A DNA stretch of 64,000 nucleotides from the NCBI GenBank assembly GCA_964550955.1, contig CAZKAF010000001.1, positions 503,931 through 567,930 of the forward strand, in the 5' to 3' direction. The DNA comes from an uncultured Candidatus Saccharibacteria bacterium (GTDB taxonomy: Bacteria > Patescibacteriota > Minisyncoccia > Phycocordibacterales > CAIZLB01). A model generated the notes under the pieces. The model ran no database searches and was not told the origin of the DNA. It was given only the letters and a program-made list of their open reading frames with translations. Both the position numbers and the translations under genes were made by a program. Position 1 is the stretch's first letter. Every line of letters begins with the position of its first letter. This document shows, one piece after another, positions 2,047-57,467 of this stretch.

Positions 2047-2646
2047 ATGCCAATCATTCCGCTTGAAGAACTGAAAAAGGACAAGGGAATCAGGGTCCGA
2101 CTCCTGAAGCACGAGCTGAAGTTCAGGACGACTTTGGGACTTTTTTGTCCTGACGAAATAGATGAGGGCACGCTTCTCCTGATGAGCGCGATCGATCCCG
2201 GCGCCGATTTCAAGTCCATTCTGGATATCGGCTGCGGGTACGGCCCTATCGGCATAGCGCTCGCGAAAAGCTTCCCGGATGCCGAAGTGGATCTCATAGA
2301 CAAGGACTTCGTTGCCGTCGATTACGCGAACAAGAACATCGCCCTGAACGGCATCGACGCGAAGAAAGCAAAGTCGTATCTTTCAAACGGATTCTCGCAC
2401 GTTCCGGCAGGCAAGAAGTACGATCTGATCATCTCAAATCTTCCCGCCAAAGTTAACAAGGAATTCTTCTGGATACTTTTCGGCGAGGCGTTCGAGCACC
2501 TGCCCGTCGGAGGAACGTTCCTTGTGGTAGCGATCAAGCAGCTTGAGCCGATGCTCAAGAAAAGCTTCGATGCCGTGTTCGGAAATTCGGAAATCGTCTC
2601 GCAGAACAAGGTGTACAGCGTGGTGCGAACAGTCAGGACGAAGTAA
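2047..2646 (+). CDS. Class I SAM-dependent methyltransferase, RsmC/RlmG-like small-domain rRNA (guanine-N2) methyltransferase
   Basis: SAM-binding motif ILDIGCGYGPIG, acidic D after beta2, and an NPPF-like DLIISNLP motif. Confidence 0.7.
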   Translation: MPIIPLEELKKDKGIRVRLLKHELKFRTTLGLFCPDEIDEGTLLLMSAIDPGADFKSILDIGCGYGPIGIALAKSFPDAEVDLIDKDFVAVDYANKNIALNGIDAKKAKSYLSNGFSHVPAGKKYDLIISNLPAKVNKEFFWILFGEAFEHLPVGGTFLVVAIKQLEPMLKKSFDAVFGNSEIVSQNKVYSVVRTVRTK

Positions 2647-2842: not shown

Positions 2843-4552
2843 TTATCGTCCGATGAATGTAAGCGCCTTTCCATGCTTTCCTCCTCGGCCGGTTCGTCCG
2901 ATTCGGTGCACGTAATCTTCGTATGTCGAAGGGAGCTCGTAGTTGATGACATGAGTCACGTTCGGGATATCAAGACCTCGAGCAGCAACGTCGGTCGCCA
3001 CGAGAATGTTTATAACATTATCCTTGAACCGCTTGAGGGTTCTCTGTCGCTCGAAATGATTCTTGTCGCCGTGAATCGATCCTACTTCGTGACCGTAGTC
3101 GGCGAGCTCTTCCGTGAGCCGCTCCACGCCGTTCTTCGTCTTGCCGAACACGAGAACTTTCGTGAATTCAGGACCGGAGAGAAGCTCGTGAAGAGTCTCG
3201 ATCTTGGTCTTTCCGGAAGCCGTTCTCACGACGTCCTGATCGACGTTCTTCGAAGTGTCGCCGGTCTTCACCGAAATGGTGACCGGATCGTTCAGGAATT
3301 CGTGAATGAGCTTTTCGATTTCCTTGGAAAGCGTCGCCGTGAAGAACAATGTCTGCCTCGGCTTCGGCATCCTGGAAACCATGAATCGCACGTCGTCGAT
3401 GAATCCCATGTCGAGCATTCGGTCGGCCTCGTCAAGGACGATCGTATTGAACTCCGAAAGGTTGATGTTCCTTCGGTCAATCAGGTCCTTGAGCCGTCCG
3501 GGAGTGCCGATGATGAAGTTATTGAAATATCGAAGCTCCGAAATCTGCCTTCGAATCTGGGCTCCGCCCACGCAGCACACCGAGTAGATCTTGCTGCCTT
3601 TCGTGAAGATGTGAAGCTCCTCCTCGATCTGAATGGCGAGCTCGCGAGTCGGCGCAAGAATCAGGACCTGTTCCTTCGGATTGAGCATCACCTTGTTAAG
3701 CAGCGGAATGAGGAACGCGGCAGTCTTGCCCGTGCCCGTATTCGCGATGCCCACGACGTCCTTGCCTTCGAGTATCGGCGGAATGGCCGAGTCCTGGATA
3801 GGGCTCGGAGTGACGAATCCCTTGTGGCCGATCTTGTCCTTGATCTCCTGCGCGATGGCGAAATCATTGAACGTATGCTTGTTCTGATATACAGGAACGC
3901 TCGCGTCAGCGACGGCATCCGGATCAACCTTGTTTACGAATTTTCTAATATCAAATCCGCTGACCATGTGGCCGGCGCTTCCGCCTGACCGCGCTCCTCC
4001 GCTTCGTCCGCCGAATCTGCTGCCTCCGGAGAAGCCGCCTCGCCGAGCCGATGACCCGCCGAATGACGGTCGGGCAAAAGAGCCGGGTCGCCCTCCTCCG
4101 TATGAGCCTCCGCCGTAGCTTGAGCCGCCATAAGACGGCGCGGATGACTGCCTCGGAGAACCGTAGCTTGAGCCTGAAGACTGAGGTCGCCCGTATGAAG
4201 AGCCTCCTGAGGATGTCCTAGGCGAAAAAGATGAGCGGCTTCCCGCTGATCGATTTCCTCCGTATGAGCTTCCGCCTGAGAAGCCCCCGCCGTAGCTCGA
4301 GCTGTTGCCATAACCCGATCCGCCGCTCCTTCTCGGAGCGCTTGACGAGTACGACGAAGAGCCGCCGTATGCGGGCGCCGAAGAGCTTCGCGGAGATCCG
4401 TAACTGGACGTTGCGGAAGGCGTGAAGCTTGAAGACGAAGGCTTTCGCGGAGCAAATGCCTTCCTTGTTGAGTCGCCGGCCCTGTAACTTGAAGTCTTGG
4501 GGCCGCTAACTTTAGAATCGCGTCCTTTTCGGGCGCTTATATTTTCTTTCAT
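2843..4552 (-). CDS. DEAD-box ATP-dependent RNA helicase with ~195-aa N-terminal Gly/Ser/Tyr/Arg-rich low-complexity extension
   Basis: Q-motif (FNDFAIAQEI...PSPIQ), motif I GTGKTAAF, PTRELA, DEAD (VLDEADRMLDMGF), SAT-like, HRIGRTGR. ATG at 4552 with no SD. Alternative internal ATG (MVSGFDIRKF, ~3967) would give the helicase core only. Confidence 0.9.
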   Translation of the reverse strand: MKENISARKGRDSKVSGPKTSSYRAGDSTRKAFAPRKPSSSSFTPSATSSYGSPRSSSAPAYGGSSSYSSSAPRRSGGSGYGNSSSYGGGFSGGSSYGGNRSAGSRSSFSPRTSSGGSSYGRPQSSGSSYGSPRQSSAPSYGGSSYGGGSYGGGRPGSFARPSFGGSSARRGGFSGGSRFGGRSGGARSGGSAGHMVSGFDIRKFVNKVDPDAVADASVPVYQNKHTFNDFAIAQEIKDKIGHKGFVTPSPIQDSAIPPILEGKDVVGIANTGTGKTAAFLIPLLNKVMLNPKEQVLILAPTRELAIQIEEELHIFTKGSKIYSVCCVGGAQIRRQISELRYFNNFIIGTPGRLKDLIDRRNINLSEFNTIVLDEADRMLDMGFIDDVRFMVSRMPKPRQTLFFTATLSKEIEKLIHEFLNDPVTISVKTGDTSKNVDQDVVRTASGKTKIETLHELLSGPEFTKVLVFGKTKNGVERLTEELADYGHEVGSIHGDKNHFERQRTLKRFKDNVINILVATDVAARGLDIPNVTHVINYELPSTYEDYVHRIGRTGRGGKHGKALTFIGR

Positions 4553-4812
4553 ATTTGTGTGTTGTTATGTAAAACAAAATAAATCGATTAGATTTTATGC
4601 CTTGTTTTAATAACTCCAGCAGGCGCATATCATTGAGGACCATGCAGTGCTTGATGCACATGTGGTCTAACCGTCAGACTCTGATGCGCAGAAATGTAGG
4701 CAATAACTAATAGTTGGTTTACAGGTACTACAATAGCTTATTTTGATAAGATTGTCAACATGCCTATCCAAATTGACTGTCCTTCCGCCCCATCCATCCC
4801 GCCCAAAGGCGG

Positions 4813-18050: not shown

Positions 18051-18455
18051 TTATTTGAGTTCGATTTTCCTTACTGAGAAGTACAGCGCGATAGCCGTCA
18101 ATACGCTGATGCCGATATGCGGACCATTCAGCAAGAAGTTATCAATGACCGACTGTCCTGTCACGAATCCGTTCAATATGTGGAATACCGCGTCAAGCGT
18201 GTAGTATCCTCCGAAAAGAATGAGATAAAGCACCTGCATCCGGTATCCTCTGGTCAAGGCGTAGAAGCCGACGGCGCCCGAGACCAAGTGAGTGATGTCG
18301 TCCAGGATTGAAATCTTGAACAGGCCGAACATGAGGTATTCGATGCCGTGACCGTCAGAACCCATCGGGACCATGACTCCCGGAATCTGCTCTATGGCCA
18401 CGATTCCCACGTATAATATTGATAAGAATAAAACTATATATTTTGTAATTTTCAT
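18051..18455 (-). CDS. Small 4-TM membrane protein (DUF4383-like), operonic with FAD oxidase
   Basis: ATG at 18455. Four hydrophobic segments. Stop of upstream gene is 1 nt away. Confidence 0.5.
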   Translation of the reverse strand: MKITKYIVLFLSILYVGIVAIEQIPGVMVPMGSDGHGIEYLMFGLFKISILDDITHLVSGAVGFYALTRGYRMQVLYLILFGGYYTLDAVFHILNGFVTGQSVIDNFLLNGPHIGISVLTAIALYFSVRKIELK

Positions 18456-25891: not shown

Positions 25892-26255
25892 GACCATCTC
25901 TCTTGTTGCGGGTCGTGGAATTGCACCACGTCTATAAGGTTATGCGTACTTCTACAGTTTTCACTGCGCCTGTCTCTCGACAGACTTTGGAGTCTGGACT
26001 ATACCTTCATCTGGAGAACGAATTCTCCAGAGTCCACCGTCTAGTCTCTACACCTTCATGAACATAAATGTTCAAGCTTGGCTCGGTATTGCCATGCGAT
26101 TAAGCAAAGGTTTCACCGAATTTGATGGATGTTTTCCATACAACATCGCTGTCGTATGAGCCCTATTGAGCCTCATGTGCTACTGTTACACTTACCCGCT
26201 ATATTGCACCCTGTGAGTATAATACAAAATCGGAATCGTGCAAGCTTTTCCGGCG

Positions 26256-45288: not shown

Positions 45289-45381
45289 GGAGACGTGTCG
45301 GAGTGGTCTAACGTGCCTCTTTGCTAAAGAGGTGTACCCCCTAAAAGGGTACCGAGGGTTCGAATCCCTCCGTCTCCGCCA
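45289..45381 (+). tRNA. tRNA-Ser (anticodon GCT), class II, CCA encoded
   Basis: GGAGACG...CCTCT-TTGCTAA-AGAGG, long variable arm GTACCCCCTAAAAGGGTAC, T-arm GAGGGTTCGAATCCCTC, acceptor CGTCTCC, G73, CCA. Confidence 0.8.
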
Positions 45382-51160: not shown

Positions 51161-51249
51161 GGAGGCGTGGATGAGTGGTTTAAATCAACGGTTTACTAAA
51201 CCGTCGTTCCCTAACAGGAACCGTGGGTTCGAATCCCACTGCCTCCGCA
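51161..51249 (+). tRNA. Class II (Ser-type, G73) tRNA with apparent anticodon ACT
   Basis: GGAGGCG...ACGGT-TTACTAA-ACCGT, long variable arm GTTCC-CTAACA-GGAAC, T-arm GTGGGTTCGAATCCCAC, acceptor TGCCTCC, G73, CA. Anticodon reading needs tRNAscan-SE/ARAGORN confirmation. Confidence 0.6.
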
Positions 51250-55311: not shown

Positions 55312-57264
55312 CTACCAGCTCCCTCCCCCTCCTCCACCGCCGCCGCCTCCGGAAGATCCGCCCCCACCGCTGCCGCTGCTTGGCATGGCAGTCATGGAAG
55401 AACTTGCATGCGAGCTGAAATCGGACAAGGCGCTGCTCAAGACCGCGGCATTGAACGCGCTGCCCGAAGGACCCGAGTACCAGGACGGCTGGACGAGATA
55501 CATGTCCTCAAACTCCTTTGCCCAGATAGCCGATACGCCAAGCACCATGGCGTAAGGCAAGAGCCTTTCGAAGACTTCCGGCCTCTTCTCCGGCGCATTG
55601 TGGAACTCAAGCCGGTCTTTTTCGGCAATCTGCAGATATTCCTTGAGGCCGAGCAGGTGCTCCTTCGCGGCCACGCCTTTTTCAGTTTTTGAAGGATTGA
55701 ATTTCGAGATGATTCCGTAGATGACGACGGACAGGAAGATGCCTCCGATAAGCGGAAAGGGATTGACTCTCAGCACGAAAATGCTTATCAGCGTTCCGAA
55801 CACGCCGGCCAGCCACAAGCCGACAAGGGCAATGAGCAAGGTCCTGAAAGAGCCGTCGCCCGCCTCTTTCATTCTCCCGAGATTTCTGTAATAGCCCTTG
55901 CTGACCAAGGCGTCCAGCACCGAAGACTTTATCAGGGCAACGTCGGAATAAAACGCATACTTCAGGTCAGAGAGCTTGACCGAAGCGCCGCCGGATTTGA
56001 AAATGGCGGACAAGAGCTTGCGGTCAAATTCATTTGGAAGGTCCGAGAAATCCCCGAGCTTCACGATTTCATAATCGACGAACGGATTGCCGGCCTTGCT
56101 CGCCCGGGTCAGGATCTTTTGCACCTCGAACTGGGACTTCTTGATTGCCGCCGAAACATCCGCGAGTATCTCCTGATGCGCCTCAATCTGATTGATTCTT
56201 ATGTATCCGCGAACGGCCAAATATATGAGCTCGGCGGAAATATTGTTCTCGCCCACTTTCTCATGAGCGATGCCGTCCGCCTCCATGGGAGTCAGCCCGT
56301 CGATGACATCATATTGCGGGACAATGACGCCCGTGCCCTTGGGATCCCTCCCGTGCCTCCGCCAATGCCGAAAGCTCAGCGCGAACGTGGCAATCGGCAA
56401 AAGCATGGCCAGAATCCAGGACAGATACATGCCGAGAAATTGCCATGCATTCTCAGCGGCCGTATACGGAATGACAGCCCCTTTTTGAAATCCGAGCGCC
56501 ACGGTAAGTCCTTCCCCCGCGTCGAGAGAGGCCGGAGTCCTGAACAGATAGACCGCCTTGGACATGCCGACGCCCTCTCCAGCATTCTCGACCGACAGCT
56601 GGCATCTTTCCCTGCTCTTTGCCGGGCCGAAATAGCAGGCATTCTGAACGACCTCCGCGCCCGCGGGCAGCGTGACATATGCTTCCGCGTGCAGAATTGG
56701 CATGGACCATTCGTTCCCCGTAACATTCCAGTATATTTCGTCGATTTCCTGGAGCTGAGCCACGGCATTTGTCGCCTTGTAGCTGATTACATATGTCTTC
56801 TGACCGCTGAACGTAGTTTCCGGATCCCCGATCTTAAGCCGGAACTCTCTGCCGACACGGGATGTCGTGTATTGATATTCATTTCCCGATTCGTCCGTAA
56901 CCAAAACATTCTCTATGGACATCCTCCTTCCTTCTGAAGAATACGGATTGATGTCCCTGTATATGCCGTGCCGAGAAATCGGACCAGTCGAATATTGAAT
57001 GATTTCAGTAACATCTACCGAATTGTCCGCGTTCACGCTTATGAACGCGGAATAGCTTGCGATGGATTCGGCAGCTGATCCTGGAGCGGGCTCCCGTGCA
57101 GCCGCGAGATCCGAATCAGAACCAGGACCGGAATCCGGCCCGGGAACCTGTACTTGTTCCTGCCCTGGCCCCTGCGCCGCCGCGGCATTGAAAATCCCAA
57201 AAACCGAAAACAGAATTCCGAGAGAGACCACGACCGAAATCAGGCTGAAAGCGGCTTTTTTCAT
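55312..57264 (-). CDS. DUF2207-family membrane protein with Gly-rich C-terminal tail
   Basis: Signal/TM, large extracytoplasmic domain, three TM helices, cytoplasmic domain, and a terminal GGGGSSGGGGGGGGGGSW. ATG at 57264 (MKKAAFSLISVV). ORF-track start at 57426 would overlap tRNA-Ser. Confidence 0.65.
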   Translation of the reverse strand: MKKAAFSLISVVVSLGILFSVFGIFNAAAAQGPGQEQVQVPGPDSGPGSDSDLAAAREPAPGSAAESIASYSAFISVNADNSVDVTEIIQYSTGPISRHGIYRDINPYSSEGRRMSIENVLVTDESGNEYQYTTSRVGREFRLKIGDPETTFSGQKTYVISYKATNAVAQLQEIDEIYWNVTGNEWSMPILHAEAYVTLPAGAEVVQNACYFGPAKSRERCQLSVENAGEGVGMSKAVYLFRTPASLDAGEGLTVALGFQKGAVIPYTAAENAWQFLGMYLSWILAMLLPIATFALSFRHWRRHGRDPKGTGVIVPQYDVIDGLTPMEADGIAHEKVGENNISAELIYLAVRGYIRINQIEAHQEILADVSAAIKKSQFEVQKILTRASKAGNPFVDYEIVKLGDFSDLPNEFDRKLLSAIFKSGGASVKLSDLKYAFYSDVALIKSSVLDALVSKGYYRNLGRMKEAGDGSFRTLLIALVGLWLAGVFGTLISIFVLRVNPFPLIGGIFLSVVIYGIISKFNPSKTEKGVAAKEHLLGLKEYLQIAEKDRLEFHNAPEKRPEVFERLLPYAMVLGVSAIWAKEFEDMYLVQPSWYSGPSGSAFNAAVLSSALSDFSSHASSSMTAMPSSGSGGGGSSGGGGGGGGGGSW

Positions 57265-57378
57265 ATGAGTATTCGTTATAGGGCTCAATCTGAAACAATA
57301 TGCCCAAATCATGCCCGGATATTGCTTATGGACATGATAGCACATAAGAAAACGCCGATGTGATATACTGCAAAACCA

Positions 57379-57467
57379 TGGAGAGATGGCAGAGCGGTCG
57401 AATGTACCACCTTGGAAAGGTGGCATGGGAGCAATCCCATCGGGGGTTCGAATCCCCCTCTCTCCGC
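57379..57467 (+). tRNA. tRNA-Ser (anticodon GGA), class II
   Basis: GGAGAGA...CCACC-TTGGAAA-GGTGG, variable arm ATGGGAGCAATCCCAT, T-arm GGGGGTTCGAATCCCCC, acceptor TCTCTCC, G73, CA. Confidence 0.8.

Follow-up and report, generated by a model that had tools for sequence, protein, structure and literature searches.

DEAD-box RNA helicases that carry disordered tails have a central place in present work on RNA condensates in bacteria. Their cores are non-processive and reliant on auxiliary regions, and, to our knowledge, nearly all of the bacterial disordered-tail helicases studied so far carry the tail at the C terminus and come from proteobacteria or firmicutes. In Pseudomonas aeruginosa, RhlE1 and RhlE2 have disordered C-terminal regions that aid the binding and unwinding of RNA as well as phase separation (PMC11260450). 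In the Type II RhlB of P. aeruginosa (PaRhlB), it is the N-terminal disordered region that is needed for RNA-dependent phase separation of the liquid-liquid type and that boosts ATPase activity, RNA binding, and unwinding (bioRxiv 10.64898/2026.03.23.713837), which is an experimental precedent for a bacterial DEAD-box helicase with its disordered region at the N terminus. RhlE-type helicases are also listed generically among prion-candidate proteins of bacteria and archaea. Here, we describe a DEAD-box helicase gene in a 64,000-nucleotide (nt) stretch from an uncultured Candidatus Saccharibacteria bacterium (assembly GCA_964550955.1, contig CAZKAF010000001.1, positions 503,931 to 567,930; hereafter, the window), in which a low-complexity stretch of 195 codons lies upstream of the helicase core in the same open reading frame (ORF).

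The helicase and its N-terminal extension

The gene is a single ORF of 569 codons on the minus strand, with its ATG at 4552 and its stop at 2843 according to the ORF listing. These are the coordinates given by the first-pass annotation, to which only the strand has to be added, and the ORF and the Pfam matches agree with its reading of the product as a DEAD-box helicase with a long, low-complexity N-terminal extension of Ser, Tyr, Gly, and Arg. An in-frame TAA, 15 nt upstream of the ATG, precludes a longer form. Both RecA-like domains are present (DEAD, 171.1 bits with a cut-off of 26; Helicase_C, 118.5 bits with a cut-off of 23.5), together with the complete set of catalytic motifs: Q (GFVTPSPIQ, residues 245 to 253), I (ANTGTGKT), Ia (PTRELA), Ib (TPGRL), II (DEAD), III (TAT), V (ARGLD), and VI (HRIGRTGR). 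Motif III is SAT in the homologue consensus and has changed from S to T in the window protein. The protein is thus a DEAD-box RNA helicase of superfamily 2. AlphaFold2, run on a 47-sequence alignment, models the core as alternating β and α elements with a predicted local distance difference test (pLDDT) score mostly above 90. The protein ends 13 aa past motif VI, with no C-terminal extension.

The closest solved relative of the core is CshA (5IVL, E = 2.4e-86 in a PDB search), with Vasa and DDX3X also among the best matches. CshA is likewise the best NCBIfam model (NF053631, an equivalog), at 394.9 bits with a cut-off of 646 and with profile positions 1 to 341 of 434 matched. Scores for DbpA (336.4 bits, cut-off 524), RhlE (322.9, cut-off 743), SrmB (308.2, cut-off 507), and DeaD (297.4, cut-off 989) are lower, and the three RhlB models (306.2, 285.5, and 260.9 bits, with cut-offs of 588, 564, and 732) rank below CshA, DbpA, and RhlE. 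Equivalog identity as any of these was rejected, since every cut-off is missed and the C-terminal regions of the CshA, RhlE, and DeaD type are absent. The window protein resembles CshA, RhlE, and DeaD (CsdA), which have the closest cores by sequence, in combining a minimal core with a basic disordered auxiliary region (PMC11260450), but theirs lies at the opposite, C-terminal end, and the window protein has no C-terminal dimerization or RNA-binding domain. By analogy, the extension is best read as the N-terminal, patescibacterial equivalent of the basic disordered tails that these helicases carry at the C terminus.

Residues 1 to 195 contain 30.8% Ser, 23.1% Gly, 10.3% Arg, 7.2% Ala, 6.7% Pro, 6.2% Tyr, 4.1% Phe, and 3.1% Lys. 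Aliphatic residues (Leu, Ile, Val, Met) and acidic residues each account for 1.5%, and the only three acidic residues all lie within the first 27. Sequence entropy is 3.03 bits compared to 4.07 in the core. An earlier description of these codons as encoding Gly, Ser, Tyr, and Arg only was overstated, as the four residues make up about 70% of the stretch, and one RGG, one RG, and four GR do not make an RGG/RG-motif region with clustered repeats. In the AlphaFold2 model, residues 1 to 199 lack secondary structure and score below 50 in pLDDT, and residues 1 to 195 are predicted to be intrinsically disordered and strongly cationic. Pfam matched no domain in the extensions of 47 homologues. Used alone as a query, the extension had no match at E ≤ 0.001 in a set of 5.8 billion proteins or, at E ≤ 10, in the PDB, FUS low-complexity chains included, both being weak negatives owing to the composition correction of HMMER.

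The first-pass annotation had found the extension to be more like FUS and hnRNP domains than like the C-terminal RGG tail of DeaD. The second half of that comparison stands, in that the protein lacks the C-terminal tail of DeaD, RhlE, and CshA; the first half is true of composition only. Like the FUS low-complexity domain, the extension is rich in Ser and Gly (54%), has ten (G/S)Y(G/S) motifs and six SSYG, and spaces its 20 aromatic residues evenly, 4 to 13 apart. However, the FUS domain is Gln-rich and almost uncharged, whereas the extension has 2.6% Gln plus Asn, 13% Arg plus Lys, and a net charge of +23, and about 60% of its homologues use Phe over Tyr. At the level of sequence, homology to FUS was not detected. 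A closer parallel in layout is offered by DDX3/Ded1/LAF-1 and DDX4/Vasa, in which a disordered cationic and aromatic N terminus is followed by a DEAD-box core. The RGG domain of LAF-1 and the N terminus of DDX4 drive phase separation. In contrast to these eukaryotic proteins, the window protein lacks C-terminal disordered regions and its core is nearest to bacterial relatives, and with no homology detected between the extensions, the likeness is best read as convergence.

Extension and core are joined by a linker (MVSGFDIRKFVNKVDP...VYQNKH), which Met196 opens as MVSGFDIRKF. Its motif, (I/L)D(I/V)xKF(I/V)NK followed by Y/F-x-P-x-H, is kept across the clade, with K208 invariant and F205 and N207 conserved in at least 90% of sequences. 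AlphaFold2 models short helical turns here at a pLDDT of about 47 to 61. The linker has no equivalent in solved bacterial structures, whose alignment starts at T227.

This layout recurs throughout the relatives of the gene. Among the 120 best homologues, which are Patescibacteria (Paceibacterota, Taylorbacteria, and "Pacebacteria"), 116 have a basic N-terminal extension of 45 to 280 aa that is rich in Ser, Gly, Arg, and aromatic residues (Y/F); their C-terminal tail measures about 12 aa. In a scan of one genome per species, 36 patescibacterial loci (Paceibacteria, Saccharimonadia, Dojkabacteria/WS6, Gracilibacteria, and Minisyncoccia) had a median of 95 aa before the core (range, 45 to 195) and a median C-terminal extension of 0; all 36 carried the N-terminal extension without a C-terminal tail. 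The 40 DEAD-box loci from other phyla were reversed, with medians of 1 aa before the core and 177 aa after it. Across the genomes sampled, the N-terminal extension is a phylum-wide patescibacterial architecture and not a peculiarity of the window gene. Extensions of 113 homologues have a median Ser plus Gly content of 50%, 6.8 to 23.5% Arg, 4.8 to 12.8% aromatic residues, a median of 1.1% acidic residues, and a net charge of +10 to +29. Tyr is the dominant aromatic in 40 of them and Phe in 64, and the two interchange between clades. The Tyr-rich SSYG flavor is limited to the sub-clade of the window protein (P0002 to P0016); elsewhere, the extension is more RGG/FGG-like, and in many homologues clustered RGG adjoins the core. 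This pattern suggests that selection holds the composition of the extension rather than its sequence. Full-length proteins of this kind are already public under the name "DEAD/DEAH box helicase," but the exact sequence of the window protein has no record in public assemblies, and full-text searches found no literature relevantly linking DEAD-box helicases to Patescibacteria or the candidate phyla radiation.

Possible roles of the extension

We think it likely, though well short of certain, that the extension serves as an RNA tether and self-association module of this one 569-aa helicase. This model is the most economical because the extension is the sole auxiliary region and is both cationic and rich in aromatic residues and Arg. 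Its evenly spaced Arg and Tyr or Phe residues would contact RNA and one another through many weak interactions. Such contacts could tether the non-processive core to RNA, raising its affinity for RNA, its ATPase activity, and its unwinding or annealing, and would permit RNA-dependent self-association into clusters or condensates. Repeat number would shift quickly through in-frame insertions and deletions, while selection would maintain the composition. By analogy with the systems above, we infer that the extension binds RNA, stimulates the core, and condenses, and a condensate or RNA-chaperone role is likewise a candidate.

The mechanism proposed here is that reported for the N-terminal extension of PaRhlB, and the window protein shares with Type II RhlB an N-terminal disordered low-complexity region. 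Nevertheless, the two belong to different helicase clades (the window protein scores 261 to 306 bits where the RhlB cut-offs are 564 to 732) and to different organisms, Type II RhlB being found in Gammaproteobacteria and Desulfobacterota. The window extension is also longer and rich in Ser, Tyr, and Gly, and PaRhlB is regulated by the C-terminal region of RNase E, for which the window protein has no known equivalent. In having an N-terminal disordered region, the window helicase probably works like both Type II RhlB and the eukaryotic LAF-1, DDX3, and DDX4.

An alternative hypothesis is that the extension is mainly a scaffold on which a ribonuclease, the ribosome, or another partner docks, and is not primarily an RNA-binding or condensing region. 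The tails of CshA and RhlB act as docking sites in degradosomes. Bacterial helicase tails often bear partner sites, and the disordered region of RhlE2 binds RNase E (PMC11260450). In keeping with such a role, the linker motif (I/L)DxxKFxNK is conserved, and some patescibacterial extensions contain clade-specific islands that are not of low complexity (VGKYAYDASYDRFADYLPK...IVEQEA, MQIGRWNHQ, AYEAGMRFALENGFKRP, and KYAYDASYDRFADYLPK), possibly short linear motifs or partner-binding sites. These islands are absent from the window protein, whose extension has none besides its first ~13 residues and the linker. The property conserved across homologues is a cationic and aromatic composition, as is typical of disordered regions that bind nucleic acids and self-associate. 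Docking as the main function is therefore unlikely, although docking and RNA binding are not exclusive.

Several observations weigh against a tether and self-association module. The extension evolves far faster than the core (64% identity over 148 alignable codons, compared to 87% in the core, between the window and its closest relative, locus L001), and weak constraint would look alike. The apparent identity is inflated by low-complexity alignment, and synonymous divergence (dS) is saturated, so that dN/dS is rough (pN 0.28 and pS 0.74 in the low-complexity region of the same pair). Low AlphaFold2 confidence is a proxy for disorder only, and with one strict RGG in the window protein, classical RGG-box RNA binding is not guaranteed.

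The extension might instead be translated but neutral, a tolerated low-complexity expansion that has no particular role and was produced by replication slippage or compositional drift. Length and sequence do change fast, even inside clusters of at least 90% identity (541 to 557 aa), identity is below that of the core, and the extension alone shows no detectable positional homology. However, Tandem Repeats Finder (TRF) found no tandem repeats in the low-complexity DNA and Ser draws on all six of its codons, so the repeats are a property of the protein only, and recent slippage as the origin was rejected. An extension is present in every patescibacterial class sampled, always at the N terminus, with acidic and aliphatic residues consistently depleted and with Arg and aromatic fractions in narrow ranges. 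Since the C-terminal tail of other phyla is absent, the extension is also the only auxiliary region left. With these constraints, neutral expansion is a rather improbable explanation.

Evidence for translation of the extension

The first-pass annotation had put the chance of an open stretch of this length at about 1e-4, and a direct calculation agrees: the probability that 195 codons stay open in random sequence of the window's composition is 1.7e-4, and when the low-complexity DNA itself is shuffled by mononucleotide, 28 of 20,000 versions (1.4e-3) stay open. Openness alone is nonetheless weak evidence for coding because the +1 frame is nearly open as well, with two stops and an overlapping ORF of 173 aa, and comparative tests decide the matter.

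Of the three upstream frames, that of the helicase stays open longest in 35 of the 36 patescibacterial loci; its median is 107 open codons, compared to 14 and 9 for the other two. When the low-complexity region is aligned as DNA, with no protein guide, each of the 17 gaps is a multiple of 3 (30, 3, 3, and 21 nt between L085 and L091, and 13 gaps between L088 and L090). Substitutions in this region fall preferentially on the third codon position, with counts for positions one, two, and three of 18/6/39 in the first pair, 54/35/77 in the second, and 47/39/95 between the window and its closest relative, a pair in which pN is also below pS. The start codon and the N-terminal peptide MK(E/D)N(I/F)SARKGRDS coincide in the window and this relative, and the start context ACAnAAAnATGAA is common to six orthologues. 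Together, these patterns indicate that the extension is translated and under purifying selection, translation being inferred from evolution.

It follows that a non-translated extension is very unlikely. Under that hypothesis, the product would be a core-only protein starting at Met196, and the open frame a by-product of biased composition. The near-open +1 frame would fit, as would the lack of a Shine-Dalgarno (SD) motif at the first ATG, which the first-pass annotation had rightly pointed out and had taken as a doubt on expression, and the helicase calls of 354 to 373 aa in close relatives. The missing SD is uninformative, however, because, among the 65 window ORFs that reach 100 aa or more, only 6 carry an SD-like motif (GGAG, GAGG, or AGGA, 4 to 20 nt before the start). 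The internal ATG previously suggested as a core-only start does not hold up either, as Met196 is not conserved: over the 50 residues that precede the core, 93 of 113 homologues lack any Met. A scan of the minus strand within the low-complexity coding region found no promoter-like site.

As for the short database proteins, P0001 (373 aa, the closest match) and P0125 (354 aa) both lie on DNA with an open in-frame low-complexity ORF upstream, and they are gene-caller truncations from internal start choice. In these public calls, the +1 frame of the low-complexity DNA is annotated as a separate small gene, and both loci inspected (L001 and L091) have the full in-frame ORF. The overlapping 95- to 136-aa ORF call in the closest relative might imply that its gene is frameshifted or split, but this was rejected on the same grounds: the called ORF is the +1 frame, and the true frame is open. 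The orthologue comparison proposed in the first-pass annotation therefore comes out for the extension, whose upstream frame is kept, and the case against it from short forms fails. Comparative data have thus already largely refuted the core-only alternative. That the stretch is an assembly or sequencing artifact or a eukaryotic acquisition is very improbable: low-complexity DNA is prone to misassembly and the composition is reminiscent of eukaryotic RNA-binding proteins, but the same architecture occurs in independent assemblies (NCBI, ENA, JGI, and Logan), the core is nearest to a bacterial family (CshA), and no extension homologue is detectable in the protein database or the PDB.

Gene surroundings and significance

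Table 1. Features of the helicase locus, peptides of its product, and related database entries
Feature	Position	Strand	Basis or remark
Full helicase gene	2843..4552	-	ORF; Pfam DEAD and Helicase_C; full-length frame kept in orthologues
N-terminal low-complexity extension, codons 1-195	3968..4552	-	Composition, pLDDT, in-frame indels, third-position excess
Extension zone 1: basic head, aa 1-37	4442-4552	-	Composition
Extension zone 2: S/Y/G/P-rich middle with SSYG motifs, aa 38-155	4088-4441	-	Composition
Extension zone 3: core-adjoining G/R/F-rich box, aa 156-195	3968-4087	-	Composition
Linker, codons 196-226	3875..3967	-	Alignment conservation, motif variants, pLDDT
Helicase core, codons 227-569 and stop, two RecA-like domains	2843..3874	-	Pfam, AlphaFold2
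DEAD domain (PF00270), aa 250-414	3311-3805	-	Pfam
Helicase_C (PF00271), aa 450-558	2879-3205	-	Pfam
Predicted sigma-70-type promoter (TTGACA, 17 nt, TATTGT)	4730..4758	-	10/12 matches
Putative 5' leader, about 170 nt, SD-less	4553..4722	-	Putative transcription start
Putative intrinsic terminator, bidirectional, with A-run, GC stem, and U-run, where the helicase and methyltransferase genes converge	2718..2751		Fold, sequence
Tryptic peptides of the extension: KPSSSSFTPSATSSYGSPR, SSSAPAYGGSSSYSSSAPR, SSFSPR, GGFSGGSR
Peptide spanning the junction of extension and residue 196: SGGSAGHMVSGFDIR
Public calls of truncated helicase and separate small gene, L001	3118-3405 and 3399-4520
Public calls of truncated helicase and separate small gene, L091	418-570 and 591-1655
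Truncated public proteins: P0001, P0124, P0125, P0129
Island-bearing sequences: P0017, P0023, P0038, P0084, P0096, P0113; L010-L023; L011, L014, L020

The features of the locus are collected in Table 1. The -35 hexamer of the predicted promoter does not vary among six orthologues, and their -10 elements can be aligned. The leader contains a hairpin (4571 to 4608) with the loop AUCUAAU; from this hairpin to the AUG it is A-rich and unstructured, and between the window and its closest relative it is far better conserved than the saturated synonymous sites. A common 5' motif, TTAGTTTTTGCCTAC, is found in all six orthologue leaders, which in single-sequence folds also have a hairpin ending 10 to 25 nt before the AUG, with an AUCUAA(U)-like loop on differing stems. 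Fold z-scores are -3.6 to -5.4 in four of the six and about -1 in the window and its closest relative. No Rfam family was found in the leader, E-value mode giving chance-level matches only, and RNAalifold gave no consensus for the six leaders, which MAFFT aligned poorly. The leader motifs are confined to the sub-clade of the window protein and could be a thermosensing or autoregulatory element.

The helicase gene is not part of an operon. Its neighbors are a small divergent gene, one for a YgjP-like metallopeptidase, and, in convergent orientation, one for an MTS-type methyltransferase. Downstream of the helicase stop, the minus strand of 2680 to 2845 is highly structured (-71.9 kcal/mol, z = -5.7), with three hairpins beyond the terminator, including the palindrome GATATAGCAAATTTGCTATATC. 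A gene for an S-adenosylmethionine-dependent methyltransferase lies directly 3' of the helicase in several sub-clades (2047 to 2646, plus strand, in the window; 4967 to 5743 in L088; 5087 to 5860 in L090). The family (MTS or UbiE/Methyltransf_25) and orientation of this gene vary between sub-clades, so a role for these enzymes as Arg methylases of the extension is unsupported, and the adjacency is probably coincidence.

Elsewhere in the window, the scarcity of SD motifs suggests widespread SD-independent or leaderless initiation. A TATAAT-like box lies 7 to 10 nt before the ATG of several minus-strand ORFs (e.g., starts at 18455, 31738, 33737, and 55284). The only other strongly low-complexity stretch is the poly-Gly/Ser C-terminal tail (SGSGGGGSSGGGGGGGGGGSW) of a DUF2207 membrane protein (55312 to 57426, minus strand), which is unrelated to the extension, so that no other window protein shares that domain. 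The 5' end of the DUF2207 ORF overlaps a tRNA-Ser(GGA) gene, and its true start is probably internal. A tRNA gene with a CAU anticodon (about 25907 to 26199, minus strand), uncalled by ARAGORN, is apparently split in the anticodon loop by a group I intron (Rfam match at 25975 to 26178), with a 5' exon ending in ...GAGGCU, an intron ending in ...GUACG, and a 3' exon starting with CAUAACCUUA. A tRNA-Ser at 51161 to 51248 (plus strand) has the unusual anticodon ACU in the loop UUACUAA, and a normal tRNA-Ser(GCU) is present at 45289 to 45381. In bacteria, A34 is rare outside tRNA-Arg(ACG).

The window helicase is not a new kind of system, and its mechanism would be that expected from work on RhlE and Type II RhlB. 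What it adds is a very large and mostly uncultured phylum that puts the sole auxiliary region of the helicase at the N terminus, with a Tyr-rich, FUS-like flavor in one clade. The patescibacterial extensions form a natural and very diverse series of lengths (45 to 280 aa) and sticker types (Tyr or Phe) for sticker-and-spacer tests on a bacterial enzyme. They also show that gene callers truncate these helicase genes, as both short database forms checked were artifacts. Patescibacteria are ultra-small cells with minimal genomes. We speculate, as a long shot, that their helicase may itself scaffold RNA-protein condensates through a Tyr/Phe-Arg sticker domain resembling those of FUS and LAF-1, forming bodies for RNA decay or ribosome assembly that would replace a scaffold of the RNase E tail type. 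In-frame length evolution could then tune phase behavior to habitat or temperature, and the SD-less structured leader could provide helicase-dependent regulation, including autoregulation. In cells with minimal genomes, this helicase is a candidate organizer of RNA metabolism.

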